Source: Hydrolagus colliei (lineage: Eukaryota). From it: DNA of 64,000 bases. The DNA is taken from contig CM068757.1 in assembly GCA_035084275.1 (NCBI GenBank), positions 7,688,001 to 7,752,000 on the forward strand, in the 5' to 3' direction. A program made the position numbers and the translations under genes. The notes under the pieces are model-generated. The model saw nothing but the letters and a program-made list of their open reading frames with translations. It was not told the origin of the DNA and did not search any database. This document shows positions 1 to 64,000 of this stretch, one piece after another; position 1 is the stretch's first letter, and each line of letters opens with the position of its first letter.

Positions 1-108
1 CAGCTCACAACTTATTCATGCACCTCAAAAAACACTGGGGAGCACAATTCTTTAGAAGGTACAGGAGAAATCAGCAAATCCAATAAAAATGGACGAAAAC
101 GCAAAACA

Positions 109-238
109 CTGCAGATGCTAGAAATCTGAAACAAAAACAGAAAGGCAGCATCTATGGTGGTACGAAAACTTTTCCTTTCTCCATAGATGCTGCCTGACCT
201 GCTGAGTGTTCCCAGCAATTTTTGTTTTTGTTTCAGAT
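109..238. mobile_element. Internally deleted inverted-repeat copy of the same palindromic family
   Basis: ggcagcatctatgg ... ccatagatgctgcctgacctgctgagtgttcccagc; outer arms atctgaaacaaaaaca / tgtttttgtttcagat; no ribozyme core. Confidence 0.75.
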
Positions 239-22227: not shown

Positions 22228-23302
22228 CAACAACAACCACATTACATTTATAGAGCGTCTTTCACGTCAAGAGGCTTTTCCAAGGAAAGAATAATCAGGG
22301 GATAGGACCCGAACATTGGGGAGAAGCGGGTTAAGGGTGAGGAGAGGCAGAGAGATAGGAGGGCAGCTGAAGGCACAGTCGAAAAGGAGGGTCTTGAGAC
22401 TGGCCTTCAAGGAGGCAAGGGAGGAAGCGAGGTGGAGGAACTGTGGGATTGAGTTCCATAGTGTGGGAGCAGAGAAGCTGAAAGCCCGGCCACCAATGGT
22501 AGGGCGGGTCGAGCGGGAGACATGGAGCAGATCAGAGCCCACTGAATGGATGGACTGGGCTGGTTGGTAAGGGAGTCAGCAGGTCGAAGAGGTAGGAGTG
22601 GATGAGACTGAGGATAACCTTGAAAGTGAGGATGACCATCTTGAATTCGATCCTCTGGCAGATGGGAAGCCAATGGAGCTGGGCAAGAGTGAGAATGATG
22701 GGGTTGTGGAGCCTGGTGCAGGAGAGGACATGAGCTGCAGAGTTTTGGATGATCTGCAGCTTATGAATGGAAGCGTTGGGAAGGGCAGTGAGGAAGGAGT
22801 TTCTGTAGTCAAGCTTAGATGTGATGAATGCATGGGTAAGGGTTTCAGCAGCCTGAGGGGTGAAGCAATGGTGATGTCTGGCAATGCTGTGGAGGTGGTG
22901 GAAGGCAGTGCTGGTCATGGCATGGATGTGAGGGAGGAAGGACAGTTCAGAGTCAAACAAGACACCCAGGTTCATGACTGGCTTCATGAGATGGAGTGTG
23001 CAACCATGGATGCCGATGCTGCAGCGCCTGAAGTGTGGAAATGCTGATGCAAGCCAATCAGGAGAGCCTCGGTTTTGCTGACGTTGAGCTTGGCAGAGAC
23101 AAAGTGGAGACGGTTTGAAAGATAGGACCTGAACCAATCAAGGACAGAACCATGAAGGTTGAGATGGAAGGAGAGGCGGTGGAGGAGCATTGAATGGTCT
23201 ATGGTGTCAAAGGCGGTAGAGAGGTTGAGGACAAGGAGCCAGAAGGAGCCCTGGTCAGAGATGGTCAAGATATCATTTGTGACCTTGACCAGAGCAGATT
23301 CC
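22228..23302 (-). mobile_element. 5'-truncated L2-clade LINE with a frameshifted RT and C-terminal ORF2
   Basis: Translations ESALVKVTNDIL...LSTAFDTIDH...WFRSYLSNR, NLGVLFDSELSF...HAFITSKLDY...LHWLPI and GGRAFSFSAPTLWNS; (ttg)n tail. Confidence 0.92.
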
Positions 23303-24691
23303 ATTGTCAGAGGTGCTGTCCCTTTGGATGAGATGTTAATCCCTTTGCTTGTTCTTCAGGACATCATTCAATTTTGAATTTGTTAGCCCTTTGCAGACAA
23401 GACTAGGAAATATCATATATACATATTATTCCCATTCATCATTTGGGTCCCTATTAGGGAAGAGAGGATACTGTTAGGGGTTAATTCTTGGATTGTTTTT
23501 TCTTGGGGATGACAACAACAGTTTGCTTTCCTGTGGAAATAAGCCATGGGTGGAAAGTGAATAACGCACAAAAAAAATGAATCAAGGCAAAGCAGAAAAA
23601 CAACATCATAAATCACAACATCATTTTTTATTGTTTGCCAATGCTCTTGCTGCTGATGGCGTGAGGCGTGGCTCTAGAATCTGTAACTCACTGATCATTG
23701 CTCTCCACTATGGACAAAACACATGTGTATACTCATACCAAATAAGCTGTGGCACATCAAACACACTGTCATCTTCAAGAGATAGGACGCGGGGCTCAGA
23801 AAGCGTCCTGCCCATCTGGAACTACAGTTACATTTCAAGACTCGATTGTGGGGGTGGGGGAAACGACGAAAGGCTGAAGATAATTTCTCACCGAGCCCTC
23901 TGATGAGTCGATCATAAAATATTTTTGGGCAGATTCGAAGTATTGGTTTCACCAACTACATCAACTAAGGGGAACCAGGGATCAGATGTAAAACAACCTA
24001 ATTGGGATAGACGCAGACTGATAGCTGGGCTAGGTTGAAGATGAAATGAAGAAGAGATTTGTGGAATTATAGGACAGGTCAAGCACCAGGACACAATCAG
24101 AACTGACCAAATGTCAGACTAATATAAGTCTCCACAACTCGAATGATTATCTTCAAGACACACTGCAAGTTTCAATCCACTTTTCAATAGGTAGTTTCCA
24201 TTTTATTTTCTTTGACTCGCTGAATTTATTGTCCAAAGCCAAATCCAATGCCATCTGACCTCACCCAGATTATATTAGAATGAGCACTTAGTGTGGTTAC
24301 AAACCTGCTTCGTGGTATCGTTACACCACTTGGACTATATTCTGCTTCATTCAAATTTCCCAATTCATCGGATTAATTGGGACATTGCTGGTGCAAAATA
24401 GCTGCTGCGTTTAACAACATTCACTTAATTCCTATTTATTCTCCGTTTCTCATTCGATAAAGCCCTTGAGGTGTTTCTTTGTGTGAAAGATGTTGTATAA
24501 ATTTTAAGGATGTTATATAAATTTTAAGTTGTCGTTGTTGACATCGCTAAATGTTTGAGTTGCTTGAAACAGAAAGCAATGAGTGTTTGAAGATGCATTG
24601 TAAAACAATAGAGCTTGAATCAGTATTTGAATGTTATGTGCGTTACATACAATGCTTTATTTTAACACGGTCCATGACTTCTCTCTTAAAG

Positions 24692-26033: not shown

Positions 26034-26470
26034 CAACAAGAACAACAACAAATTACATTTATAGAGCGCCTTTCACGTCGGGAGGACGTCCCAAGGCGCT
26101 GCACAGGAGGCGTGTGACCCGAGCTGAGAGGGGAGTGTTTGGGAAGGGGTGAGACACGAAGGGGAGGTAAAAGAGTTCGGGGTGGAACAAAAGGCACGAT
26201 CGAAGAGGAAAGTCTTCAAACCGGCCTTGAAAGAGGAAAGGGAAGAAACGAAATGGAGGGATTGAGGGATGGCATTCCATAGGGTGGGAGCGGAGAAACT
26301 GAAGGCCCGGCCTCCGATGGTGGGGCGGTTCGGGCGGGGGGCTTGGAGCAGGCCAAGTCCTGCTGAACGGAGGGTCCGGGTGGGCGTATAGGGGGAGAGT
26401 AGATCGGTTAAATAGGGCGGGGCAAGGCCATGTAAGGCCTTGTAGGTGAGGACGAGGATCTTGAACTCGA
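26034..26470 (-). mobile_element. Young 5'-truncated L2 LINE 3' end
   Basis: Open frame EFKILVLTYKALHGLAPPYL...GGRAFSFSAPTLWNAIP...FKAGLKTFLF; tail gggacgtcctcccgacgtgaaaggcgctctataaatgtaat(ttg)n; CpGs retained. Confidence 0.93.
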
Positions 26471-27034
26471 CACATTTCAGCCACATTCACAACACTGCAC
26501 ACATCATAGGAACTCCCTGTCTCTCCAAAGGAAGCCCGTTTGATATTACCTGAAACATTATTTATAGTGGATGTGCAGGGAGACACTTGAAATGTTGAAG
26601 GAGGTGGTATGAGGCCAGCAGGTACATGATAGTACACAGCTCCTTCAACTCCTCTTCAAAGCATCATTGATTATTCTTTTCTCGGATTTTTTCTTTAATG
26701 TTGATCAGAATTGTTTGAGACTATTTTTTGAAGAGATACTGTTAGCTGTCTACCAATTATGGTGAGTTTAAGGAATACAGTTTATAAATGTTGTTATCCT
26801 GTTCTCTGTTCTCTGAGGTGAAACCAAGTTGTTTCACACACTTGCCTCAGACGCAGAAAATTCTGCTCCAAAGGTAGAACAGCGTCTCTACAAAGAACAG
26901 GTTAAACATTTAACAGCTGCAGCAAGAGTCTGTTTAGTCTAAATTTATGATCAGGAATGTTCTGGAATTTTTCTCAAACTAAGTGTTGTTTTGCCTCTGG
27001 CACCTTCGCTTAGGGTCTTTTATCTCTTTTACAG

Positions 27035-33792: not shown

Positions 33793-35832
33793 TTATTATT
33801 ACTATTAAGTTGTTGCTGTTATTTCATTGTAATGAGCCATTTAGATGGCTGTTGTGAAGTAGCTTATATGACAAGGTTGGGCTCATGATCTTCCAGTTTT
33901 AGCCAAAACAGCAATCTTAACAACTACAAGAATAGCGCATTGTATCATTCCTTTATCAAGCATGGACTTGGTACAAGTGGAGACTTGCTGTCCCATTATA
34001 GGAACTTTAGCAGAGTTCTGCTTGCTTGCCTAACATTAATTCCAAAGGAATCTGAACTGTTTTTGGTGACCGCAGTTACCTGCTTCCCCGGACCAGCTGC
34101 TTCCCTGCTGTCAGATGTGCATGACAGTGCTGGGGAGTGGGCTGGGAACAGAATGGAAATGATCAAATCTGTGGCACTGAATGTTTCAGTTCGTTCAATT
34201 CATACAGTATACATCCCAAGTATTTTTTCAGAAGAAAACATTGATGCTCAGTTACTGCGTGGCTATCCAAATTCTCTCAATTTAAAGAAAAAAGGTATTT
34301 GAGTTTGTATCGATGTTCCCTAGAACTAAGTATTTTTATTGGCGTTTATCAAAAACATCTACATCCTGGTGGCTATCCAAGGCCGCTGGCAAGGTGTCGA
34401 CATTCCAGTGGATTTGATTCTAAGCATAAACTCCACATAGCTGATTTAATCAGTCAGAGCGTTCCGAACAAGTTCATTGCCTAATAAGGGAAAAAGATTC
34501 ATCTCTTCAGGCAGATGTGAGCTGCAGCCACCAGCCATGATCTATTAATATATTCATTAAGTTGCACCTCATAGTAGCCCAGGGCAAAGCTTTCTTTTCT
34601 TTTAGCAGTAGTTAGAGCATAAGGTGTGAGTATTATAACACAGCCACCACCCATTGTGAAGAAGGATGTTTTAGGGTAACTTCTGCAAATTAATTTTTTT
34701 ATTTACCATCTCCTCCTAATTGTTGGTCACAGAAACACCAACCTCGGTTCGTATGTTCAAGAAATCATTTTCAGTTGTACAAATAGGAGAATATTTGTGT
34801 TTATTAAGGCTATCGATGATCATTTATGGCTTTGTAATTTGTGGCATTAACCAACGAAAGTCCTCTTTAGGGAATTGTGTCATGAAAGGTTTTGGGCGTC
34901 GATCATGTACAGTGGGTGCCTTTAATTTGGGAGCTCGGCTACACACCAAAGCTAGGTAGGTTTCAAGAAAGACTAGGTATTCTCCCAGCTGAAGTAAACA
35001 CCACTCATTCTTATTGTGTGTTACTTATTCTTATAATGATTCTTTGTGATACATATGTGAAAAGTTTGCAAAAGATCTGACTCAAGACTTAAGTTGATTG
35101 ATCCTTTGGACTTTCTTGCACCCACTCGTTATATTTCACAGTCCTTTCATATTTTGCTTGTTATCAGACGCTTGGGATTCTAGATACTGATGACATCGAA
35201 TTGTGATCTTGGCTTGTAAAAGAAGGCGAGTAACCAGTTTGCTGTATGTGAGGCTCAAACAACTTCTCTCTATGCTGTGTCTCAAAGGCACACCTAGAGA
35301 GATATTTACATTTGTTTTTGCATTTCACTCTTTAACAATTTGTTTGCGAAATATTGCCTTTGGTTTCAGCCCCAGCGCTCAGACCCCAGCTCTGATGAGG
35401 TTAACAATTCCTAACCAGAAATTTCCATTTATATAGTAGCATTCTCACGCACACGCACACGCACACGCACACACACACATGCACACGCACACACAGTATA
35501 GCGTCTAGGAGCACTTATCAGTTCTGGAGCTTGGTGCCCAGCTGGTGGGAGGAAGTAGAGTCAATTTGGGCACCAACCAGCAATTCATTTGTTAGAAGAA
35601 GACAAACAGCAGATACTGAACTGACCAAGACCCTCAATGGCCTCCTAGAGGAGGTGATTGATGGGAGGACTTAGTCCAAGTAACTCTCTAAAATCATTGG
35701 TTTCAAGCCCAGCCAAGTTGCTGTGACAGGGTTGCTATGCTCAAACATTCCTTTGAAAGCCAACAAAGTACAGTATATAATGTGGGGAGCTGGAAATCAA
35801 GCTGACACTTGCAGGATAGTGTCTGACTCCGT

Positions 35833-36139
35833 GGAGTCCTGTACCTCAGTGGTTAGAGCACTTGCCTTGCAAGTGAGAGACCTGGGTTAGATTCCAGGCA
35901 GGGGGCGAAACCTTGGGCAAGTTTCCTTACTCCAAACGTCTGATAATAATCCCTAATTTAAAAAAAAAAATTCATTGAGCGACTATTTGCGGGACATTGC
36001 TCTGCACAATCGGCTGCCACCTTACACCCACTCAATACAGTCAATTCACTTTACAGTATATTTTGTGAAGCGCTTTGAGACGTCTGCAAGACGTGAAAAG
36101 TGCTATATCAAATGCAAGGATTATTATTATTATTATTAT
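35833..36139 (+). mobile_element. tRNA-derived SINE with L2-type 3' tail
   Basis: A-box-like TACCTCAGTGG and B-box-like GGTTAGATTCC; tail gtgaagcgctttgagacgtc...gtgaaaagtgctatatcaaatgcaagg(att)n. Confidence 0.88.
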
Positions 36140-39400: not shown

Positions 39401-39903
39401 GTGCACAGCACATCTGGAGAGTATTTCTAGCGAGCCTGCTGCCGCTATACCATGACAGAAGATTCGAAATCCCACAATGAAATGAAAATGGAACCAGATG
39501 CAGAAGGGAAAGTAACTCTACCCCTTTATCGGTAGAGTTATTTGGAGTTGTGAGCTTCTTCACCAAACTAACTTGGTGATCTTCTGAACATCCTCCTTCA
39601 ATGGGTGATTCGCTCACTGCTAGCCTTCAGCCAATTTCTCTACCTCTCTCTCTCTGTCACTGTCCCTCTCTCTTCTCATCCTCACTTCATTCCTTGTCCT
39701 GTTTCATCTATTACAAGGGGGATATGTAAATAAGATCCACCAATGGCTGAATTAAGATGAAAGACACTGAAAGACAAATCTGTTATTATTGTACCAGGAA
39801 TTGATTGTGATATGTCATAACGTTTAGTGGTCAGAGAGCAAGGAACAACTGTGTGGAAAATTGACCTGGATTCTTGATAATGCTTGACATTCTGCATGAC
39901 CAG

Positions 39904-40044
39904 ATTCTGGATGAAGTGGAAAGAAGACGTGGAATTTCTGCTGCCCTGGTCTATCCATTCATGAGGAGCCTCATGGAGTCTCCCTTCCCAGCCCCGGGAA
40001 GGACAATACGAGTCAAGACCTTTCTTCCAGGAGCTGGGAATGAG
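39904..40044 (+). CDS. DENND2B: DENND2B coding exon (ILDEVERRRGISAALVYPF...GAGNE)
   Basis: gaccag|ATT ... GAG|gtgagg; 141 nt, phase 0-0. Confidence 0.96.
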
Positions 40045-40054
40045 GTGAGGATGA

Positions 40055-40177
40055 CTGCAGACACTAGAAATCTGAAATAAAAACATAACTTGCTGGGAAC
40101 ACGCAGTAGGTTAGGAAGCATCTATGGAGAGAGGCAAATGAGTTTAACGTTTCAGGTCCATGACCTTATGTCAGAAT
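40055..40177. mobile_element. Single-arm copy of the same palindromic family, with a degenerate hammerhead core
   Basis: Similar to 43759-43854; the minus strand reads CUGACAUA-AGGUC-AUG-GACCU-GAAACGUU. Confidence 0.7.
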
Positions 40178-41099
40178 GTAGGTACGTTCATTCCAATGGA
40201 CCAGTTTACAAGCTTCTGACTCTTCACCTGCAAATGTGCATTTGAAAATGTTATTTAAAATCATTAAATGTATTGTACTAAACCATCTCCAGAAGATGAG
40301 CATTGAGCTCTATGCAAAACTAAATTACATGCATGAAATAAACAAAGTATACAGTTGTGGAGCTGGAAACACACATTTAATCGGAGCTGTGCAGGATAAT
40401 GGATGTCTGGCAGTGCCTTTTAAAGTCTTAATCCATCCAAGCTGTTCCACTGAGATCACAAACCACAAAAAGTAAAGTTCGAGAAACTTAAACCGTGACT
40501 TTTAAGTCAGCAAATCCATGAGTTGAAATCATTGTCTTAAACTCGCTGTTTCAGTTATTCTTTACAAATACAGTATATAGGTTTTAAACGTTTTCTTTAA
40601 TAAACTTTTTTTTAACAATTATTTGTCGATAGTGCTGAGCATGACCAGGGGAACTAAGAGATAAGCGTGGAACATATCAAAAGTTTCCATATATCTTCAA
40701 TACAGTCAATTGACTTTACAGTATATTTTGTGAAGCGCATACTGCAGTAATGTCTTTTCTGTGGCAGATCATGGACTTTGGCATCACTAGATATTGAATC
40801 AAAGCCTGTGTCCCAATGTCTCATGTACCAATAACATTTCCAAAAGACATCGCAGAAAGGATAAAAAAAACTGTTCCAATTTGACCCGTCAAGATATCAT
40901 TCCTACAGGTTCATGTTCACTAGATGTCATTAACAAGTGTGGTGAATAATAATGATAGTTGAATACTGTATAAGGCCTACCAATGTCCTATAGCAATAGG
41001 TTGGAACCATATGTGATTAAGCACTCCAACTCTGTTATCGCTGCCAGGACGCTAGCCTGTGTGAAGGGCTCGGTATAAATGTTGTTATTGTTACTGCAG

Positions 41100-41248
41100 G
41101 TTATTGAGCTGCGACGTCCCATGGACTCTCGGTTGGAGCACGTGGACTTTGATTGTCTCTTCAGTTGCCTCAGCGTCCGGCAGGTCATCAGGATCTTTGC
41201 TTCTCTACTGCTTGAGCGACGAGTGATATTCATCGCAGACAAACTGAG
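41100..41248 (+). CDS. DENND2B: DENND2B coding exon, cDENN (VIELRRPMDSRLEHVDF...LLERRVIFIADKL)
   Basis: ttactgcag|GTT ... CTGAG|gtaaca. Confidence 0.96.
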
Positions 41249-43758
41249 GTAACAGAAAGTGCCCGCATTTATTTACGTTGACTAGGCACTGGGGAGCTCT
41301 TTGTGGGACACTGGTTGTGTGCAATTGTGCTGCCGTGTTTCACAGTCACCGCATTTGTGAAATGCTTTGAGACGTCCTTCTGACGAGCTGCAGCCAATGC
41401 AAGGATTATTATCATATTATCGATTACCTTTGCAGCTTGCTCCCTGTTTGTCCCTTTTAACCCAAAGAAAGAAGAAGACCCCAGCTTTAACCCAGCTTTC
41501 TCTGCCAAAGTGGGACCTGTGTCAGTACAGTATTCTCACCCCGTAGGAAACAAATGTTTACTCAAAGATTGTACATCCACAAAATACCATTTGGACGGAT
41601 AGGAAGTTGCTAAAACCGTAGAGCTGCAGTGATTCTGCTCGTTAAGGTTTTTGTTGTGTATCTACTGCAATAACTTTGGAAAACCCAGCATCATTTTCTG
41701 TGTCGTTGCTCTTCTGCTCTTAGCAAGAGAACGACAAACAGTTTCAAAGTGATATGAAAAGAATGCAAGATATTTTGCCGACACAGCCACAAATAGCTGC
41801 TGTTAGTCCAAGGAGGAAATTAAAAATGGTTTATGAGGGCAAGATGCTACAGTGCACATGCAAGGTAATGAGGCACTGCCAGTAAATCTTTAACCCTCTT
41901 TATAAGAAAGCATGGAATGGGAAAATATTTTATAGGGCCATTTGGTCGTCTCCTTCACTGCCCAGTCAAACCTGGCCCATCATGGACTTCACACTCCCTT
42001 TCAACCTCAATGTGAAACCGTAATCAAGAATCCAAAAAACTGATCAAGAATGGAACAAAGCCCCCTCTTCCTCCTCCCCCCACCCCACAACCTGAGGTGT
42101 GAGCCCCAGAAGAGATTTAAGAGAGACAACCTTGTGGGAAGTGTCTTTATTTTCAAGTGAATATCTGCTTTGCTTTGAACATTGAGAAAAAAAAAGCTGT
42201 GATCCCTTTTAAAGCATTATTTCCCCCACTCTCCTGCCCCCACATACCACCCAATCAACTAAACAACCAACCAGATCTATGTCGAGGCCCCTTCAGTCCT
42301 ATAAAACTTGTTAACAAATTTGTCCTCAAACTTCATTTGATTCCGATTTCAGTAATTACACAGGATGGAGGCATCTGGAGCACATTAAGCAAACATTTTA
42401 CCTTTGGACACAAATTTTGGAGTAATATTTGATAATTTTTCTTTCTACTGCTCTTACTTTTTAACCAGTCCCTCTCACTCAACCAACACACACACATACC
42501 TTCCTGCCTCAACCTTGGTCCAGGGAGGAAAAACTGCAACCGGTTTAGCTTTCTGAAAGCTAAATACAAGGAGGAGGAATTGATATGATAGTGAATTTGC
42601 AAGCCGGTTTCTATTTCTAATAAAAATGATTCAATTCTGCAATTAAAATAATGACATATAATAATCCTGGCATTTGATAATGATAATAATCCTTGCATTT
42701 GATCACGTCTTCTAGATGTCTCAAAGCACTTCACAGAATATACTGTAAAGTGAATTGAAGCACCTTATCACATCTTTGAGACATCTCAAAGCGCTTCACG
42801 GAATATAATGACAAATTTATGGTAACTATAGTGGTAACACACTTGTTTTGGCACAGCTCACATTTCTCCTGTGTCCTGTGTAATTACATCTGTCCTGTGT
42901 AATTACAGTTTTAGTACAATCTTGAGTCCTGCTCAAACTCACAAAAGTGTTTTCAACCATCCTACCTCCCACTGAAATACAGAATAGCTCAAGACACACC
43001 AAGTATTTGGCATTGTTTCTGAAAATAATTTGTTTAGCCTGCTTATCTGGAAAGGCTGGGTTTAAACAGAACTCTTGTCTGTTGTTCATTCCCCCCCCTT
43101 TCTATCCCCCCATCTTCTTCCCCTCCTCCTCTTCCCCCTCTCTTCCCCCCTCCTCTTTCCACTCCCCCTGTCCTGACCCAAGCCATGATGGCAATATTCA
43201 TATACAATCCAACCAGAAACAGATGCAACCCTTTATACAAACAGCACTGCGAGAGTGCAAACAGCTGAGTTTGTGATACACATTGTTAGCTGTGGCCTGA
43301 GTTACCACTCTGATGCTTAGTTGTTTGAGAAGGCACAGGGTTAAAAATAAGGAGCAGGGAAAATAAGGTTTGGGCAGAAACAGAACGTAAATCTTTCTAA
43401 GACTACCTGGCGGAAATAGAAATTGTTGAATTAAAATGATCCCATTTTGACCTCTTCACCTCCTCAAACTGTAAGCTTAGGGATAAACCTGGAAATGCAT
43501 CACTTGTGTCCTCTCTTAGCTATCTAGAGATTAGATAATAGGACATTGTCGGTGTGGTGGAGAAAATATATCAAAAACAATAGAGCCTAGTAGTGTGGTG
43601 GGGTTGGGGGAGTGGGGCGGGGGTAGAGAGAGAGAGATTATTCAGCTCTGGTCTGTGTGGCGGCAAAATAAGTTCTAAACTGAGAACTTATAAACTTATA
43701 AAAAGCCTACACAATGGAAACCTTGCCACTCTCCAAATGAGAATACAATCACAATTGG

Positions 43759-43973
43759 CAGAAATCACTGGGAACACTCAGCAGGTCAGGCAGCATCTAT
43801 GGAGAAAGGAAAAGTGAGTCAACGTTTCGGGTCCACGACCCTTCGTCAGAACCCAACATTGGACCCGAAACGTTGACTCACTTTTCCTTTCTCCTTAGAT
43901 GCTGCCTGACCTGCTGAGTGTTCCCAGCGATTTCTGTTTTTGTTTCCGATTTCCAGCATCTGCTATATTTTGC
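43759..43973. mobile_element. Palindromic repeat, probably a Penelope-like element terminus, carrying a hammerhead motif
   Basis: Inverted arms 43759-43835 and 43860-43936 with 2 mismatches; related copies at 109-238 and 40055-40177. Confidence 0.75.
43816..43854 (-). ncRNA. Minimal type I hammerhead ribozyme motif
   Basis: Minus strand: GGGUU-CUGACGA-A-GGGUC-GUG-GACCC-GAAA-CG-UU-GACUC (core, stem II, palindromic stem III, stem I). Confidence 0.65.
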
Positions 43974-46455
43974 AATTTGAGAATGCATTGGGTCAGGTTG
44001 AGAAGGTCAGATCCACAAAGCCACTGGCAAATCTCCAAAACCCCATGAAATTGATTTGGATGTTTATGAAGTCTTTGGAAGCTTTATCTTTTTTTTCCTG
44101 ATGCTATGCTTGGCTCTCAAAGTGCTGAATAGATCATTGCAGAAGCTACTTGCATCAACATGTAGCAATGCATTTGATCTCTGGTATTGTATGAATCAAA
44201 TGGGTTTGGAGGATGTGGGAGAAGTATAGACTTGCAACAATAGTGAATTAGTATGTTTCATTCTCATTACAACATGTTTTCCAGGATCTATTCATTTCAA
44301 AAGAAATGAACCATGCGTACATCCTAATAGCATTCTTTGCTGCTCCTTTTAACCCTGCCGATCCCAGTTCCATGTATTTTCGACCTTCACGGAAGATTAT
44401 TATTAAAAAACATATGATTTAGGGTCCGATTCAATGTGGAAGTATTGAAATCACTTTGGGAGCCCTGGTTCAGAGATAATGGTAGAATTATGAAGTGTTT
44501 CCATTCAGGTTACGGAATCAGACAGGTTCTAGACAAGACTCTGTGGTATTACTCAGAATGTTTTTAAGCACAAAGTCCCCAATTGTATAAGCAATGATCT
44601 GCTCCAGCAGAATCTCCCTTTCCACAACATTCCTCGGTGTTTCAAATTCATTCTTGTGCTCAACAAGGTAATGGCTATGATTTCAGTGCCAGTATCACAT
44701 AATCACATAGCAAACATCACACGACCAAGAGCTTATTCACTTAGCTGAACAATGGGTAGCGGCCCAACTATAGAAAAATTCCCCAAACTGCTGCGTTCCC
44801 ACAACACTTGAACGTGGACTGAAATTCTGGTCGGAGTTACCTTTTAGCACCTTTGGTGACAGCTGCTGCTTATGGGATTTCCCCTGTGGAATTGTTGGAA
44901 GATGCTAGACTGAAATTTCTGCCAACCTGTGGTCTTTCTGAGTGAGGTTAATTCAGGCTGTTTCATGCTGCCAACCCACACTTACCTGAAAACTGAAATT
45001 AAACTGTGGGACCTTTAAAGGGAAGAAGGGACAGTTTACCAACGTGCTACCCCACATTCCAGCTACCTGTTTCATTCCTTCTGTCTTAATCTGTGAATGT
45101 ATTTTAGATGACGTTTTCTTGAAAGAGTGAGTGCCAACGAATGTGCAACGATGTAGATATTGTCTCATCTTATAGTTTGTGAAGGTGCAGGGAATTACAA
45201 GGTTCTTATAACTTATAACTGTATCAACTGTTTGAAGGAGCTGTCAAGCTCTCCCACTCTTACCCCCAAATTTGCCCTGCAAGTTGTTCCTTTTTATGCA
45301 CCTCTCCAATTCACAGTATCCCAATAGCAAATTTCTTAAGAAAAATAGTCAGTTTCCATGGAATTCTCAATTGGATTCTGTACTTTTTGTTTAATTAAAT
45401 GCAGTGCAAACCTGTCTGGCAATCGGCTATTACTCCCTGTGAAAGTGCCGCAAAACACAGCCTGGATTGCTCCAAGCCAGTGGTGAACCAGGTCTGAGCT
45501 TGAAGCTACACGATGAGGAAAATCACATTTTGTGTTCTGCAGGCTGTTAACAATGTTAAAATTGAATAAGAAAATATATTTGCCAAGCTTAAAGAGCAAA
45601 TGAAAGGAAACTGGATATTAATAATAAAAAAGAACCTTTGTCTGAATGAATGCTTCTTTGTTCTGGCATGTTATTGAAAGGATAATGAGTGCTACAGATG
45701 AGAATGTATATGTGTGTGTGGGGATGGGTGAGGGTGGAGTTATAGATTAGGACGAGTAAATCACATTATATTTATTTACCTTTTTGAACAGATTTTTGGG
45801 ATGTCCCAGAGTACAAACTTTCCAATGAAAGTTGATCGTGAGGATTTGTGCTTTACTAATATAAGCTTTTCAGTGAAAGTCTTTTACAGTGAAAGTCTGT
45901 GTGTAATAATCTTGGTAACAACATGAGCTTTGTAATGAGAGAAAATTGATGGTCAGCATCTGTATACATCAAGATAAGATTTGAAATTAGAATGTTTAAA
46001 ATGAGGATCTATGTTTAATTTTTTTAAATGCTCATATACATTCCCATGGTGAATAAATAAGAGCTTTCTTAGGACTATAATTTGAAAACCTAAAGGGAGA
46101 TTTTACAATGATTATTTACCCAATGTGATTTTATATGATTTTGGCTTCCTAATCTCACAGCAGCAGCATCAGTAATTTACCAGACAGCAGAGAATAAAAC
46201 AAGTCGAGGTCAATCATTTACTGATCATCAGAGAGTCATCCATCCAGGGTGTTTGTTCTCAATCTCTACAGAAGCCCTGTGATGGGGTAGATTGTTATGT
46301 GAGGCAAGTTTTCAGTTCACGAAACAAGGTGCAATCCCGCCTGTTACAACTTCATATTTTAGTTTTGACTAAAAACTGGGTACAAATTAAATCTTGTCAC
46401 CAAGTAGCATTTCTCCCTTTGATACACTGAAAAATATTTGACGTCTACAAGATGT

Positions 46456-46766
46456 GAAGTCCTGTAGCTCAGTGGTTAGAGCACTCGCTTTACAAGCGTG
46501 AGACCATGTTCCGAATCCAGGCAGGTCAGGGTAAAACCTTGGGCAATTTTCCTTACGCCTAATAATAATCCGTCCAAAGAAAAACTAGAATAAATTGATC
46601 ATTTCAATCCATGACTGTTCGTGGGACACTGCTGTGCGCAATTGGCTGCCGCGTTTCGCCTGCAGATATACAGTTAGCTCACTTTACAAAGTACATTCTG
46701 TGAAGCGCATTGAGACGTCTAGAAGACGTGAAAAGCGCTACATCAAAAATGCAAAGATTATTATTA
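46456..46766 (+). mobile_element. tRNA-derived SINE, same family
   Basis: cctgtagctcagtggttagagcac...gttccgaatccaggcag head, same body and tail. Confidence 0.88.
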
Positions 46767-48607
46767 GATAAGATTACCTGTTGTTTTGCCCAACTGACAA
46801 GCATTTTAAATTCAGAGACGAAGTATAGCATTTAAGATTTGATTTAGCCTTATTTCCTGGGTTGAGGTTTTGGACAGCTCTGACATTCTGTCACACACAC
46901 GTGTAGTAAGCGGTGGCCAAATGTTTGATCAATGACATCCTGCTTTCCTTGTGGTAAACCACAGTTTTGCTGTCAATTGATTGCATAATATCAAATACTG
47001 TGTATTGGATTATCACCAACAGTGCTCAGTGACATGGACAACGTGTAGGTTCTTACATTGAGGCTGTTACAAAAGGGCAACCAGATTGGTGAGCAACTGG
47101 ATTGCTCGTCACCTGAGTTATGAGGAGAGATTGTGGGAAAATTCAGACGAAGGAAGGCTTGACAAATATGCTGTTGAAGTCACTCAATTCATGACTGTTT
47201 GTGGAACACTGTTGTGTGCAATTGGCTGCCATGTTTCCCGCACAACAACAAAATTACACTTGTATAGGCGCTGAAAATTCAAAATACACAGTCGATTCAC
47301 TTTACAATAAATTTTGTGAAGCTCTTTGTGATGTCTCAATGACATGGCTATATCAAATGCAAAGATCATTTATTTGTTTATTTCCATCATCAACAAACAC
47401 AGAAACATTGTTTTCTAATACATTATTGCCCTTTTACAATGCTGTAATATAGGTTTGATATTTCATATCATTCATACCATTCAACGGTTCCCTCAACAAT
47501 GATATTTTCACCGTCTCAAATCGACCTGATCACTTTTTAAACACCATTTGTAGCTCGAAAGCAGAACTTGTAAAGGAGGTTGAATGGCAATTCAGGGTTA
47601 ATTCCTGTTAAAGTGTTAAGTGAGTGCTGTAAGGCTCTGTAATTTACCAAGAAATCATAAATTTACAAGATTGAAAAGTTGCGCAAACCAGCTGCTGTTT
47701 ACAGAAAGGCTGGTATGGGACCAGTGAATGCTACCACCTGCTGGAGGTGCAGAGGAGAGGCGGGTTTCGGTGCGCGGGTAAATCAAGTTTATTTCTGGCC
47801 AGGGTTACAGTGCTGAATCCTAATTATTGTGACCTTAAGTTGAAAGTGCTCGTCACGTTCCTTCATTCTCCCATTTGAAAAGAATTTAATTTCAGTGGTT
47901 AGAGTCTGCTTTCATCATAATTACAAGCATATGATTATTTTGGCTGCAAATTTAATTCTTAAAAACAAAGGCCCTGGAAGGATTTGATCCTCATTATGCA
48001 GCCTGATCATTGGTGACAAGTAAAATGAGGCTCTCAGACACATCCTCCATGATTGGAGTAAAACACTTTCAGATTCCCAACCCGACAACTGGCCAGACCT
48101 CCATGCGAGTGTTTGTTATTTCAGGAACACTCATTAAAATGCTTTTGGGGTATGTTTTCCTTAAGAGTTTTTACAATAGAAATGATCTCGGAAAGTATCC
48201 ACAGTTTTGTACCACTTCTTTGGGGCGCTGTTGGCTTCTGGATTTTACTTTGCTTTAGTGCCTTGGGACCTTTCTGTGCTTCGTGGACAAAAAGGGTATT
48301 CCAGGACCAAAGCCACATTAACCAAAGGAGAGATTCTAGAGGACGTTTTTCTGGTTAATTTCCCTTTTCGGCTTACGTTTCGGTGACGTTCAGATACTGG
48401 ACGTACATGCTTGCTTGGGCACTGAGTATTTGAACTGTGCGTTTCAGTCAAGTGGCAGGTGGAGGAGTATTGCCTATTAGATGCCGTGTTGCCCATTGAT
48501 AAAGGATGTTTCACGTAGAATGGTTATATGGCCGCATTAGATGTCATGTTAACTGTACTCAACAATGGGATTAATTGTGTGCCATTGTCATGTGTCTTCC
48601 CACGCAG

Positions 48608-48785
48608 CACTTTGTCCAGCTGTGCCCATGCTGTGGTGGCCTTGCTCTATCCCTTCTCCTGGCAGCACACCTTCATTCCAGTGCTGCCCTCCTCCATGAT
48701 CGACATTGTCTGCTGCCCCACGCCTTTCCTCGTGGGCCTGCTCTCCAGCTCGCTGCCCAAACTCAAAGAGCTTCCGGTGGAAGAG
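48608..48785 (+). CDS. DENND2B: DENND2B coding exon, cDENN (STLSSCAHAVVALLYPFSWQHTFIPVLP...PTPFLVG...VEE)
   Basis: cccacgcag|C ... GAG|gtaaga; contains DENN LLYPFxWQHxxIPVLP and PTPFLVG motifs. Confidence 0.97.
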
Positions 48786-49582
48786 GTAAGAGAGGCTTTC
48801 CCGTAGTAAAGAGGTGGACTCTCTCCATCCCTCCATAACCCCACAACTCTACATGTCAGAAACAGTGCCATCCTCAACTCAGCTTCCTCTTCAGCAATGT
48901 GCCAATAGTGCAGTTTGTCTCATTGAGCCTATCCCTGTGCAGGCTCCTCTACCTAACCATCGAATCCCTGTTCTTTCTTTGTGCTCTTTGTATGCATCTG
49001 TGTGAAACTCAATGAGATGTCCTTCAAAATGTGATTAGCGCTTGTATAAATCTAAATTGTTGCTGTTGGATATCTTTCCCCTTAAATTATTTAGCCAGCA
49101 CCTTTTAAACACTATTACAAAGGTACATTTATACTGTATTATATAGTTGGCTAAGTCAAACTAGCCCGTGTGAGCGGTGAAAAACATTCGGATCATAGCT
49201 AACACGATTCATTGAAACACCAACTTAACAATAGGCTTGCTGCAGTGCTCAGTGAGAACCCATTAGATGGAGTAACAGAGCACAATGGATAACAGGGCAC
49301 AGTCTTTACTGAAATGGACAGTACGTACATTTCCGTGACTTGCAATTTTTTTGGGGGAAAAAGCCCCCTACTCTCATTTCACACAACTCCACCTGCACAA
49401 GTCTCTTGTGACATTGAACAATTAACGGCTCATTTATTCCAAATTCCAAGACGAGAAGCGGCAATCAATCAGCCTCTGGTCTTGGCAGAGAGGCGAGGTA
49501 TTTAATACTTAGGTATTTAACCCTGTGTGGGAGTTGTGCAGAAACGCCTGGTGATTTTTACTGTGCAATTCTGTCCGGACAG

Positions 49583-54865: not shown

Positions 54866-54995
54866 CAATGTTACTAAGTGTGTGACCGACTGAGCTATAT
54901 GGAGCATCAGTCAGTGAATAAAATAGTAGATACTCTGCGAGAACTATAGCACATCAAGACAACAGCATGTGCCAGGACGTGACTCTAGTCTCGGG
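54866..54995 (-). ncRNA. SNORA3: Second SNORA3/SNORA45-family H/ACA snoRNA, RPL27A intron 4
   Basis: Paralogue of 56588-56718: CCGAGACUAGAGUCACGUCCU..., H box AGAGUA, UUAUUCACUGACUG...CAGUCGGUCAC, ACA+3 nt. Confidence 0.9.
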
Positions 54996-56587: not shown

Positions 56588-56718
56588 TAATGTCACTAAT
56601 CTGGTGACCGACTGGGCTATAAGAAGCTGCAGCCAGTGAATAAGATCAGTAGATGTTCTTCGAGTACTATAGCACACCAAGACAACAGTCAGTGTGAGGA
56701 TGTGACTCTAGTCTCGGG
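56588..56718 (-). ncRNA. SNORA3: H/ACA snoRNA, SNORA3/SNORA45 (ACA3) family, RPL27A intron 3
   Basis: Minus strand: CCGAGACUAGAGUCACAUCCU...GUGUGCUAUAGUACUCG, H box AGAACA, UUAUUCACUGGCUG...CAGUCGGUCACCAG, ACA+3 nt. RPL27A is the known host of SNORA3A/B. Confidence 0.92.
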
Positions 56719-57032: not shown

Positions 57033-57098
57033 TCATCCTTAGAATTTGGAACATGAGCTCAAACCAATGAATGAACGGAACCAGGCTGCAATGTACTA

Positions 57099-57310
57099 CA
57101 AAAACAAAAGTACATTTATAGAGCGCCTTTCACGCCAGGGGGAGGTCCCACAGTGATGGACAGTCAGGGGTCAGGACCCGAGCAATGGGGGAGGGGGAGC
57201 CAGGTTGGGATGAGGGAAGGTAGGGTGGCCGAAGGCATGGTCGAAGGAGGAGGGTCTTGAGACCAGTCTTGGAAGGAGGCAAGGGAGGGAGCAACGCAAA
57301 GGGATGGTGG
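57099..57310 (-). mobile_element. L2 3' end in RPL27A intron 2
   Basis: catttatagagcgcctttcacg tail and ggtcttgagaccagtcttggaagg, similar to 22228-22440. Confidence 0.8.
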
Positions 57311-58634: not shown

Positions 58635-58968
58635 CCGAGCAACAAGGACCCATCCCAATGCATCACACCATGGGTAGTCATTACCAAACTGCACTCCTCT
58701 GTAGTCTCTTTCTCATGCCAAGTGAAACAAATTTTTTAAACAAAAAAGGGAAAGAAAATTCACTGGAATGAGAAAATATGTACACAGGTAATTGGAGTTG
58801 AGGTACTAGATCAGCCATAAGCTAATAGAATGGCTTTTTTGTGGGGCAGTTTGACACTTGCGGAGACCCATCGGCATGCTTAAGCACATGTAAACCAAGC
58901 TGAGATTTCCATACATCGCATCTATGTCGAATGGAATGTGCGCTCCCTCCCTGGAGGGACACATCCGA

Positions 58969-59289
58969 GGGAGCTCCTGTAGGTCAGTGGTTAGAGCACT
59001 TGCCTTACAAGCGTGAGACTTGTGTTAGAATTCAGGCAGGTCAGGGCGAAACCTTGGGCAAGTTTCGTTATTTCACACGCCTAATAATCATCCAAAAAAA
59101 ACACAATATTAAAATTTGGTCATTTCAATCTACGACTGTGGGACACTGCTCATTGCTGTGAGCAATCGGCTGCTGCATTTGACCCACAAAAATAGTCAAT
59201 TCACTTTACAGTATATTCTGTGAAGCGTTTTGAGATGTTGATAAGATGTGAAATGCGCTATATCAAATGCAAGGATTATTATTATTATT
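58969..59289 (+). mobile_element. tRNA-derived SINE, same family
   Basis: ggagctcctgtaggtcagtggttagagcac head; (att)n tail. Confidence 0.88.
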
Positions 59290-59623: not shown

Positions 59624-60030
59624 GGTGGTAGCCTGGTTCAGCTACTAGTAAGCTCACCTCTGTGTCAGAAGATTATGTGTTGAAGCCTTCACATTGGGCC
59701 TTTGAGTGTCATCAAAGTCCAGGCTGACAAAGTGACGGAAGTGTCCAAAGCAGCGTAACGAGAGTGCTACCCTTTTGGCTGATGTGTCAAGCATTTAGTG
59801 CGGCTGAATGTTGATACTGTGACACTATTTTAAAAGAGAAAGGTGTTTCTCTGCCAGTGTCCTGGCCAACAATTCTCCAGATAAAATTAGTCATTCACAT
59901 TATGGCTGGTTATGACACAAATTGGCTGCTGCACATCTGTACAAATACAGTCACTGTATTTTGTGGTCAATCCTGTGAAGTGCCTTTGACGGTGCCTTGA
60001 CAAGAAAGTTGCTAATACCAAATGCAATTG
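59624..60030 (+). mobile_element. Older diverged SINE resembling the DeuSINE/SacSINE1 group
   Basis: ctcacctctgtgtcagaag...ccaggctgaca...gtgtcctggccaac...aaattggctgctgc...gtgaagtgcctttg. Similar fragments at about 15345-15560, 21420-21800 (-) and 22150-22227 plus 23304-23375. Family name is from recall. Confidence 0.6.
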
Positions 60031-60031
60031 T

Positions 60032-60310
60032 GGAGTCCTGGAGCTCAGTGGTTAGAGCACTGTCCTTGCAAGTGAGAGTTCTGGGTTTTGTTTCCAGGCA
60101 GGGCACGTTTCCTTACTCCATATGCCTGACAATAATCCCTGAAAAAAAAACTTGTAATTTCAATCCATGACTATTTGTGGGGCACTGCTGTGCACAATTG
60201 CCTGCCGCGGTTTGACCACAAAGTATACAGTCCCTACCCTTTAAGTTTCCACATGAATAGAAGATGTCCAGAAAACGTGAAAAGCACTATATCAAATGCA
60301 AGTATTATTA
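60032..60310 (+). mobile_element. tRNA-derived SINE, same family, abutting the tail of an older SINE
   Basis: ggagtcctggagctcagtggttagagcac head; tail gtgaaaagcactatatcaaatgcaagtattatt. Confidence 0.85.
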
Positions 60311-62778
60311 ATATTAATGATAGGATTATTTTTACTTTTTAGTTACAGTACTTTTTAGTCATCACAAAACCATAATGGGGAACAAGAAAGAATAACTGTT
60401 CACCTGAGGTTTATAGGAATACTCCTTCGTCACAGAGTCCAGGTAAAAACCTTGCATCCTCCCATGTAAAGCAGTGCAATGATTTACATCCAAAGGCTAT
60501 GAGGTGGTCTGTGTTTTCACAGAGTTCTTGTTTGGCCCGAATGTTCCAATGCCTTTGAATTTCTAGCCTCCTGTCAGTGATTGTGCAACTGTATCTGGGC
60601 TATTGCTTCTCAGGAGACCATCTATATTCTACACATATCAAGATTCTGCTTCTTGGTGTCCATTCATACTGACCTTCAAAAGAGTACTTTCCCTTCCTAC
60701 AACTTGGAGTGCACCCAGGTCTCCACAAGAGACTGAATCTAATCGATCTCATCAGTGTCTTCACCAGCAGGACATCGGTCCATTAGTCCTCAATGTTCCT
60801 GCCCTGAGCAGTGCATCAGCATAACTGAAATCGTGAATGCAGTATATGTTAACCCATGTAGTCAAAGAATTTCTTTAATCGATGGTTGGAAATGCTGATG
60901 TTGAATGGATACCATTTGGACCAAGGGTTAAAAATGATGATGTAGGCTAGGAAAATGTCAAAACGATTTGTTTATCATAGGTGAAGGATGTTTTCCATAA
61001 CAAATTCAAGTTTTAGTTAGTGTTGTGTTGAAGATGTTTTCTGTAACAATTCCGGTTTTATAACAGTTCATGTTAATTGGTGTTTGTGGAAGATGTTCTT
61101 CTATAATAATTCTGCAGATTATCAATCAAAATTTATATTTATATAGCGCCTTTCACGTCGAGAGGACGTCCCAAGGCGCATTCTATTTTACTATTTATTA
61201 TTTTATTATTCTTTTAATGTGAGACAATTGCTTCCTGGACATGAGAATGGAAAGATTTTACATTCTCAGCCTGTCTGTGGAAACTCGATTATAAAAGATG
61301 TACGTACAGCTAAACTTTGTTCTTTGTTCAGCCTAGGACAAAGCATATCACATGCTATCCACCCAAGAGCCATTTGCATGTGAAGATATGAAGTGCTGAA
61401 GCAAATATGTTGTCTTCAGGATTGAATTCTGTCAGAGTCTGGACTGTTCCGTCGTTCCATCATTTTTCATTGACACCAGCAATTTCAGGAAGAAGGGAAA
61501 CTGCAAAAATTCCAAAACGTCTGAAATTGTGTGGACAGTAATAGGAGGAGAAGGATAACAATGTACAGTAACTGTCGAGTAAAGTACACAGCTCAGCTGC
61601 TCACCTTTGAAGGTTCAACTTGGATTTCCTACTCAACGAACAAAGCACAAAGTTTCGCAACCGAATCAAGAGACTTTTCATTGATCTTTTGTCTGCTGTT
61701 CGGTAATTTTACTAACTAACCCCATCAAAGAAGCAAGATCCGTACGGTTTATGGACTGAGCACTATTATTTACTTTAATATGAACAGTAAAGTGTTTACT
61801 TGACTATAAACATTTATGGATGTGATTAACTTGCTTTGCTGCATTATGGTAATTGAACAAACAAATTTTACATTAATTTTAATTATTAATTAAAATAATT
61901 TGTCTACAAATTAGCCACTACACAAGGCGGGAATTACCTGTAAAGTGTTATGGGAATTTTTATATTTTAGGCACTATATCAAATGGATAGATTACTATGT
62001 TTTATATTATCTTTTATTGCACTATTAAGAATGTGGATTGAACACAAGGACAAAATGAGCAAAGAAAGAAAGACCCAGTAAGCTTTAACATGTCACCCGG
62101 CACAGCTTTGCAAAGCATTACAGTATTAGTGACAAGTCAGCTAAAAGTGAGTATAATACTGTACTTGGGTATCTTTCAATAGACATTAAAAAGGATATGT
62201 TAAAAAAAAGGACATTAAATTGGATATTGCTCCACTATCTCTTCCCCAGTGTTTAGTTTGATCAACTTAAATCATTGTGGACTGTACGCGGACACGGACA
62301 CATAAGCATTATTGGGATATATTTGTTCAATTAAATAACCATTATTAATCTGAATTAATAGACCTTCATTAATTGCACAACATTTGTGTCAGTCCTCACT
62401 TCACCGCAGGATCACGAATTTAACAAACTCTTACATTCCTTTTAATGAATCTCATAAATACACAGAATAGTAAATGCAAGGTAAAGTTGGTCTTATTCTT
62501 TGCACACAAATACACAGTGAATCCACTTTACAGTATAACCCGTGAAGCGCTTCCTCCATGACGTGAAAGGGGCTGTATCGATAATGTGAGGATTACTATT
62601 ATTATTTTCATCCAATGTAGATTATGACCAACTGATGAAAGAGCGAGAGGCAAGGTGAGGAGTCACTGGGAATATGTCAGCAAGAAAACCAACTCAACAG
62701 GAAATTACAATTGGTAAAGTAACAAACATATACACCTCCCTTCTCCACCACCACCATCTTTTCCATTTAACTAATAAA

Positions 62779-63116
62779 AATAATAATCATCCTTGCATTT
62801 GATATAGCGCTGTTCCCATCTTATCGACGTCTCAAAGCGCTTCACAGAATATACTGTAAAGTGAACTGACTGTGTATTTGTGTGTGAAATGTGGCAGCCA
62901 ATTGCACACAGCTGTGTCCCACAAACAGTCGTGGTTTGAAATGACCAATTTTTATCTTTTTTTTTTGGGGGGGGGGGGGGGGGGACGCATTATTATTAGG
63001 CGTGTGTGCGGAGTAAAGGAAACTTGCCCGAGGTTTCGCCCTGACCTGCCTGGATTGGAACACAAATCTCACGCGTGTAAGGCGGGTGCTCTGACCACTG
63101 AGCTACAGGAGCTCCC
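62779..63116 (-). mobile_element. tRNA-derived SINE, same family, reverse orientation
   Basis: Reverse complement matches the copies at 46456 and 58969 over the full length. Confidence 0.88.
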
Positions 63117-64000
63117 CCGAGCAGATGTCAGAGGTTTATTAAAAATGACACCATCAACCAACCCTCTCCCTCCCCCTCCCCACCAGCCTCCCCAGCAACA
63201 ACAACAACTGAGGGACAAGCTGGCCCTTTCCTTCACCAAAATAAAATCAACTCAACCAAGTGGGACTGACATCCTTGGAGCAGATATCAATTGAAAGGAT
63301 TATTATGGTTATTATTAATATGATTATTACAGTACTGCTATATATAGTACTGTATTACAGCACTACTATAATGTCCTTCGCAAATAGTTCTGTTTTGGAA
63401 AACTCGTGGAAATCAAGGGCGAATGACTTTTTCATTACCTTGATTTTTTTTTTGGGGGGGGGCAGAGGAGGGAGGGAGGGAGTTGGGGGGAGGGTAGGGG
63501 GGGGGGGAGAGAGAGAGAAAGAGAGAGGAAAAGGGAGAGAGGAGGGTTGAAGAATGCAAAAATATGATTCCCTCAACCCCCCCTTCTTCTGTGTTTCTCT
63601 CTCTCTCTCTCTCTCTCCCTCCCTCCCTCTCCTACCTCCCTCAGACCTGAATAGCGTCATTGCCAATTGATGCTGTCACGTCTCATCGCAGATACCCATC
63701 GGCAGCTGTATTTTATTTTGTACGTCACAGGCGACAGTTTCAGCCCCCCCATCTCATTAGCTAACGTCACGCCCTGTTGATAGGTAAAGGACCATTGATT
63801 GTGGCAGTGAAGAGAGAGAGATATATATCTGTGAGTGTGGGTGAGTGCAATCTCACCAACGAAAACCCTTGTAAAGTCAGTGTTTACTTACACTTGGGGG
63901 GTGGCAGCTTCCACACTTCTCTCTCTGTTGTTTTTTTTATTTATAAAATATATATATATATACACACATAATTCTCTCGGGGCAATGAGGTCATTGAAAT

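Follow-up and report, generated by a model that had tools for sequence, protein, structure and literature searches.

A minimal hammerhead motif centring a fold-back repeat, very probably a truncated Penelope-like element end-piece, in a DENND2B intron of the chimaera Hydrolagus colliei

The window, by which we mean the whole 64 kb stretch of DNA analysed, carries exons of DENND2B on its plus strand, placed by tblastn of the Callorhinchus milii protein (P0001). Exons at 41097-41246 and 48606-48788 flank the motif described here. The long window exon is 92% identical to the C. milii DENND2B and 67-71% identical to the four best named elasmobranch matches, which points to a holocephalan source, probably other than C. 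milii. The exon placement defines the following feature:

41247..48605, plus strand, host DENND2B intron (approximate)

As DENND2B is encoded on the plus strand and the hammerhead core on the minus strand, the core is antisense to the DENND2B pre-mRNA. The intronic, antisense location proposed in the initial annotation of this DNA is thus borne out.

Positions 43815..43855 of the minus strand read directly, letter by letter, as a minimal type I hammerhead (min-HHR) motif with these parts:

43855-43850, minus strand, 5' strand of stem I
43849-43843, minus strand, core CUGACGA (C3-A9)
43842, minus strand, extra A between 9 and 10.1
43841-43837 with 43833-43829, minus strand, stem II, five Watson-Crick pairs closed by G10.1-C11.1 (G43841-C43829)
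43836-43834, minus strand, loop II
43828-43825, minus strand, GAAA
43824, 43823, 43822 and 43821, minus strand, C15.2, G16.2, U16.1 and U17, a loopless palindromic stem III with a GUU triplet
Between 43821 and 43820, minus strand, predicted cut
43820-43815, minus strand, 3' strand of stem I

Up to six pairs are possible in stem I, two of them G-U. The motif agrees with every column of the published min-HHR consensus (PMC4209133 supplement Fig. S3). It has the required CUGANGAH core, GAAA and NUH triplet, as well as the palindromic 15.2-16.2 without loop III (C43824-G43823) and the short helix I. A descriptor built on that consensus (PMC4209133) identified one site on the two strands of the 64 kb, the motif at 43815-43855, and none in 300 dinucleotide shuffles of the window. 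There is no second intact core on either strand by this descriptor.

The minus-strand hammerhead with its core, 5-bp stem II and GUU triplet, as initially annotated, is therefore confirmed by the letters and by the descriptor. The 5-bp stem I is real as pairing, but its outer pairs are likely junction filler (see below) rather than family sequence. The proposed stem III, AACGUU, is indeed self-complementary; however, A14 and U17 are core residues in the established hammerhead numbering, so that a dimer model pairs only ACGU (4 bp). GUU is a weaker cleavage triplet than GUC.

A search of the window against Rfam returned no hammerhead family, either among the five gathering-level matches or among ten matches at E<=10. 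This is expected for a motif that lacks loop III and, as a monomer, stem III. The absence of stem III from the monomer also makes it expected that the MFE structure of the isolated motif is a different hairpin (z = -1.6). Matches to miRNA families fell below the gathering score and were discounted, as they reflect only the long hairpin described next.

The motif sits in the middle of a head-to-head palindrome of 214 bp, a context that the initial annotation missed; the arms of this palindrome (43759-43835 and 43860-43936, 77 nt each) are 97% complementary, with two mismatches, and both point outward from the centre. The parts of this fold-back are:

43752..43758, plus strand, candidate target-site duplication (TSD), left copy, 7 bp, 6/7 identical to 43973-43979
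43759..43852, minus strand, direct arm, a 5'-truncated piece of Penelope-like element (PLE) type terminal repeat with the hammerhead, its tail-less end at 43759 (from the contig pile-up and the arm/copy alignment)
43853..43859, plus strand, junction filler between the arms (family loose ends behind 43852 are unlike the locus copy)
43860..43936, plus strand, inverted arm, element-sense on the DENND2B strand, which retains of the hammerhead just its 3' half (no plus-strand descriptor match)
43937..43972, plus strand, 36-bp tail extension on one arm only (common to the two further copies listed below, and seen in family loose ends)
43973..43979, plus strand, candidate target-site duplication, right copy

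Contigs from four sequencing runs stack on 43759-43856 and are absent from the unique flank. Family loose ends before 43759 and before 43768 continue into the tail sequence. The right arm begins within stem II and lacks CUGANGA; thus the locus has one core and not two. The candidate TSD has one mismatch in 7 bp, and a match of this kind is expected by chance with a frequency of ~0.012 (estimated by sampling the window). The filler at 43853-43859 provides the outer stem I pairs and resembles family upstream sequence in right-arm orientation.

Two further relics of the repeat family were found in the window:

40057..40176, minus strand, copy B, a single truncated copy of the same repeat family
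91..236, no strand assigned, copy C, palindromic, with the hammerhead centre deleted

The core of copy B is decayed at G8 and A9, and its stem II is closed by A10.1-U11.1 instead of G-C. Copy C is bracketed by 8 bp at 83-90 that recur at 237-244 (8/8 identical), a candidate target duplication, with the proviso that the left end of the copy was set after the duplication was noticed and lies 10 bp outside the end of the BLAST alignment (101). No tandem copies are present at the locus, and all three copies in the window are non-tandem. Copy B starts ~10 bp downstream of the DENND2B exon at 39889-40047, beside the splice donor.

The abundance of the family was assessed by alignment of contigs from the four runs (X4, X7, X11 and X13) to 43640-43859, 220 bases that comprise one arm and its flank. 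Matching contigs, which are not to be equated with copies, numbered 21,572 (X4), 20,537 (X7), 2,549 (X11) and 941 (X13), i.e., ~21,000 in each of two chimaera-like runs, X4 and X7. Essentially all lie on the repeat, and the unique flank (43640-43743) has no cover in any of the four runs, the same organism's included, so that no empty site is seen among these contigs. Crude scaling of the three relics per 64 kb (n = 3) predicts tens of thousands per gigabase. Among the X4 contigs, 2,450 are identical to the locus at >=99%, 6,847 at 95-99%, 9,419 at 90-95% and 2,856 at under 90%. The insertion had been described as young, an idea that these data neither support nor contradict: the arms differ at 2 of 77 positions, most contigs show 90-99% identity, and a second organism has the family in comparable numbers.

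The analysis was restricted to contigs with at least 80% identity, so the variant list is biased to similar copies and differences near contig ends can be missed. Among these contigs, no position of the core (43843-43849) varies in >=4% of depth. Motif positions that vary at or above this level are the CpGs at 43823/43824 and 43828/43829 (~10-14%) and the outermost stem I position, 43815, which is under 4% in X4 and X7. Loose-end consensuses carry a loop II change that is absent from the variant list. A second subfamily has stem II closed by A10.1-U11.1 and an A at 1.1, the latter a one-sided change. The combination of these changes is phased in copy B and also occurs in the loose-end consensus behind 43813 in three of the four runs. 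This is one compensatory pair and probably one event; moreover, the replacement of C11.1 by U falls at a CpG. Covariation in the stems, which we looked for in the contigs and the window copies, comprises a single pair in stem II, whereas stem I has only the one-sided change at 1.1.

Behind 43852, family loose ends depart from the locus copy from 43853 on, with an agreement of only 0.35-0.54. The family probably has an A at 43853, which would give a 4-bp stem I; of the six pairs at the locus, ~3-4 would be family-derived. The outer pairs (43853-43855) of the locus copy probably stem from the junction filler. A fixed 5' boundary of the repeat at 43852 was considered and rejected, as a peak of loose ends is expected there simply because the locus copy leaves the family sequence at 43853. 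The 15 joints listed (of 30) are all opposite-strand switches, at varied coordinates. None of these 15 is a go-back joint, although a unit longer than the 220-base stretch would escape detection.

The family upstream consensus beyond 43852, read in element sense, has a pyrimidine-rich run that ends in CAG directly before stem I and resembles a 3' splice site (agreement 0.35-0.54). At 43880-43901 (plus strand) and 43794-43816 (minus strand) there is a branch-point-like motif, a pyrimidine tract and an AG followed by ATG just after the hammerhead; this ATG opens a 25-codon frame to the tail end. On the plus strand, these signals could act as a cryptic acceptor within the DENND2B intron. The acceptor-like AG is abolished by a change at 43798 in ~28-45% of depth, and we regard a 3' splice acceptor directly behind the motif as a weak lead.

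We searched for proteins that could link the repeat to Penelope elements. No RT or GIY-YIG match was found among 11 stop-to-stop ORFs of >=90 aa at 39.7-49.9 kb (a subset of such ORFs), and no GIY-YIG/YVDD-type motif is present in the six frames of the window. Pfam analysis of 17 window ORFs gave one weak RVT_1 match (22987-23355), below the cut-off and 20 kb from the motif, which we take from its motifs to be LINE-like. Very weak searches with a peptide of 30-41 aa, translated from the arm with its ATG at 43899, found no PLE protein. It has two matches among 1.84 billion representatives. We consider one (P0121) to be a chance match in a repetitive protein; the other (P0122, 71 aa, residues 3-28) is unnamed, has similarity that ends at about the tail end and is more suggestive of a spurious ORF that overlies a related repeat than of a PLE protein. 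A second search returned no match at E<=1. The peptide also resembles one uncharacterised Heterodontus protein without a Pfam domain (E=0.28). Pattern scans gave no match in viral sequences, one in metagenomes (L001) and one in prokaryote genomes (L002). Both were set aside as chance matches in bacterial-looking sequence without a BLAST match to the window. The lack of a nearby RT or GIY-YIG ORF, also noted at the outset, is upheld by the ORF, Pfam and motif scans, and neither the window nor the weak peptide and pattern searches provided a link to such ORFs. With no ORF linked, assignment of the repeat to the PLEs rests on anatomy.

The window also contains unrelated features. Decayed LINE-like fragments occur at 22229-23355, 26036-26655 and 57098-57307, with the weak RVT_1 match; within the window we saw no similarity between them and the hammerhead repeat. 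A tRNA-headed SINE family of ~320-350 bp is represented at 35822-36138, 46453-46766, 58966-59289, 60029-60316 and 62772-63125. These copies are 66-77% identical, and there are many shorter tail fragments. Two SNORA3/SNORA45 H/ACA snoRNAs were identified with Rfam at 54866-54995 and 56588-56718 (minus strand), presumably in introns of the ribosomal-protein gene RPL27A, based on synteny and an ORF at 55434-55141.

Folding predictions bear on whether the motif could act at this locus. The hammerhead fold is predicted to represent 5e-4 of the ensemble for the motif alone, 9e-5 in a single arm and 2e-25 inside the palindrome. A double-hammerhead model has -23.1 kcal/mol versus -36.9 kcal/mol for the dimer MFE, a gap of ~14 kcal/mol. 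Folding energies of this kind take no account of tertiary contacts, of kinetics or of assistance by proteins. Within a read-through transcript, the upstream arm is predicted to pair with the motif's 3' half. The DENND2B pre-mRNA strand is predicted to form a 77-bp hairpin (-155.5 kcal/mol) that contains only half a motif. The locus copy is probably inert: it is single and antisense, and is predicted to be masked by the hairpin.

We conclude that the 214-bp fold-back, with the motif at its middle, belongs to a chimaera repeat family of very high abundance and is very probably the dead end-piece of a 5'-truncated PLE, with a hammerhead for which no cleavage is predicted here. An inverted, 5'-truncated terminal repeat in head-to-head arrangement is present at the locus, opposite-strand joints recur in the family, and the 36-bp tail at one end falls in the 30-40-bp range of endonuclease-positive PLE insertions. 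The min-HHR in a PLE terminal repeat that was first suggested is thus well supported by the consensus, the tailed inverted arm and the high copy number, although not by a linked ORF. The alternative suggestion of a non-autonomous, ribozyme-bearing element that is a unit in its own right is unsupported, as the junctions differ from copy to copy.

Published PLE biology suggests how such a structure could arise. The GIY-YIG endonuclease of the element would have nicked both strands of an AT-rich target, and reverse transcription would have begun at two neighbouring internal sites on the RNA, ~36 nt apart, so as to give one arm with a tail and one without. Both cDNAs may have halted early, near the hammerhead, and may have been joined head to head via the short filler, in an insertion that would have left the 7-bp target duplication. 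Two internally primed cDNAs and self-priming on an antisense template are indistinguishable here as origins of the junction. RNA of the parent element could have been cut after GUU by a double hammerhead, with the 4-bp ACGU stem III formed between two copies, and/or with the help of the element protein.

Other explanations must be weighed against this one. The repeat may instead be a monomer of a non-autonomous, non-LTR retrozyme family, i.e., short tandem hammerhead repeats that derive from PLE terminal repeats and are moved by PLE enzymes. Retrozymes akin to PLE pLTRs, which also occur as solo monomers, have been reported throughout the vertebrates, one chondrichthyan among them (10.64898/2026.07.22.740005), and no ORF is linked to our repeat in the window or by the weak searches. 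Furthermore, this explanation overlaps with that of a PLE relic, as both use PLE machinery and similar scars are expected. However, the locus has no tandem unit, the three window copies are non-tandem, only one core is present in 64 kb and none of the 15 joints listed for the 220-base stretch is of the go-back type. We consider a retrozyme origin unlikely. Far less probable is that the palindrome is a MITE-like mobile unit with terminal inverted repeats that multiplies whole. The long, near-perfect arms, the candidate TSD and the high copy number would be consistent with this, but the arms are unequal (the 36-bp tail), the locus copy (copy A) and copy C differ in their centres and ends, copy B is single-armed and joints occur at many coordinates.

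An intact core in an intron, together with the stable 77-bp hairpin predicted in the pre-mRNA, could also indicate a ribozyme or hairpin domesticated by the host to regulate DENND2B, like the conserved intronic hammerheads of amniotes (RECK type). A hammerhead of that type would be sense to the pre-mRNA, unique and stably folded as a monomer, whereas the core here lies on the strand opposite the gene, belongs to a family with very many copies and has a fold that is predicted to be masked. Such a role is extremely improbable. Chance resemblance to a hammerhead is effectively refuted, despite the lack of an Rfam hammerhead match and the alternative hairpin preferred by the isolated motif, given the absence of descriptor matches from the shuffled windows, the agreement at every consensus column and the compensatory pair in the family.

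If the fold-back is a PLE end-piece, as we favour, it adds a holocephalan repeat family to the min-HHR class, known since 2014, which has little significance alone. The locus is a clean, small example of a PLE insertion scar, with two unequal arms, a tail and a candidate TSD. The size of the family would make it useful for two questions, namely whether min-HHRs are active in vivo as cutters of RNA and what gives rise to PLE junctions of the head-to-head type. A more speculative view, which we regard as quite improbable, is that family hammerheads cut host pre-mRNAs in sense, in trans or with protein, and that strand-specific selection consequently acts on tens of thousands of relics within introns. 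The locus would then have begun as a palindrome with a core on each strand, of which the gene-sense one would have been lost to a short deletion at a microhomology and the antisense one kept whole. The filler region (43852-43865, plus strand) matches 8 nt of the family upstream loose-end consensus in right-arm sense, and the 4-nt CATG is present both there and in the family loop II. A deletion of ~23 nt between the CATG copies may explain why CUGANGA is missing from the right, gene-sense arm, a speculative idea given the low agreement of the consensus. The strand-selection view draws on a single locus and on this low-agreement consensus. Were it true, the remaining palindromes would also give rise to double-stranded RNA from introns throughout chimaera genomes.

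Comparison with known systems places the motif closest to features described for PLEs. Min-HHRs lie in the pseudo-LTRs (pLTRs) of metazoan PLEs, and most copies are single and probably come from truncated elements (Cervera and De la Pena 2014, PMC4209133). The locus shares with them CUGANGAH, the extra nucleotide between 9 and 10.1, G10.1-C11.1, GAAA-C-G-U-U without loop III, the short helix I and a U-rich flank. The family is also similar in its high number per genome, mostly as single copies from truncated elements. In contrast, helix II at the locus, with 5 bp, is at the short end of the published range, and the repeat is known here without a linked RT/EN ORF. A single Schistosoma min-HHR did not cleave and dimers were cleaved weakly, and in Drosophila virilis Penelope an intron ends at the 5' end of helix I (PMC4209133). 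No cartilaginous fish appears in the searched text of PMC4209133, and its supplement file 2 has no mention of shark, skate, Callorhinchus, milii or Leucoraja. A search of the literature on Penelope in chimaera, shark and holocephalan found no paper on this repeat family.

The form of the insertion also has counterparts. PLE anatomy is described as including an inverted copy that is 5'-truncated, and a tail of 30-40 bp on one side (Craig et al. 2021, PMC8557442). A 31-bp tail, 8-10-bp TSDs and head-to-head junctions are reported elsewhere, where self-priming from an antisense template is offered as another way in which such junctions may form (Arkhipova et al. 2013, PMC3846280). In vitro, the PLE protein of Anolis nicks both strands at AT-rich sites and reverse transcription starts from two internal sites, the distance between which corresponds to the tail; the hammerhead of this element cuts only with protein and is dispensable for insertion (Frangieh et al. 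2024, PMC11167929). Like the endonuclease-positive PLE insertions in these accounts (PMC3846280, PMC8557442, PMC11167929), the locus has a head-to-head inverted repeat, a tail at one end (36 bp here), a candidate short TSD, an AT-rich target and a hammerhead ~80-120 nt upstream of the two ends. It differs in having no ORF body and in that both arms are truncated inside the terminal repeat. PLE-derived tandem retrozymes occur across vertebrates, including one chondrichthyan, and one of nine tested dimers was active (bioRxiv 10.64898/2026.07.22.740005). Our repeat is like these non-LTR retrozymes in being short, non-coding and PLE-pLTR-related with a type I hammerhead. Unlike the retrozymes, which are tandem units that each have a hammerhead, the locus has just one pair of arms, inverted, and a single core.
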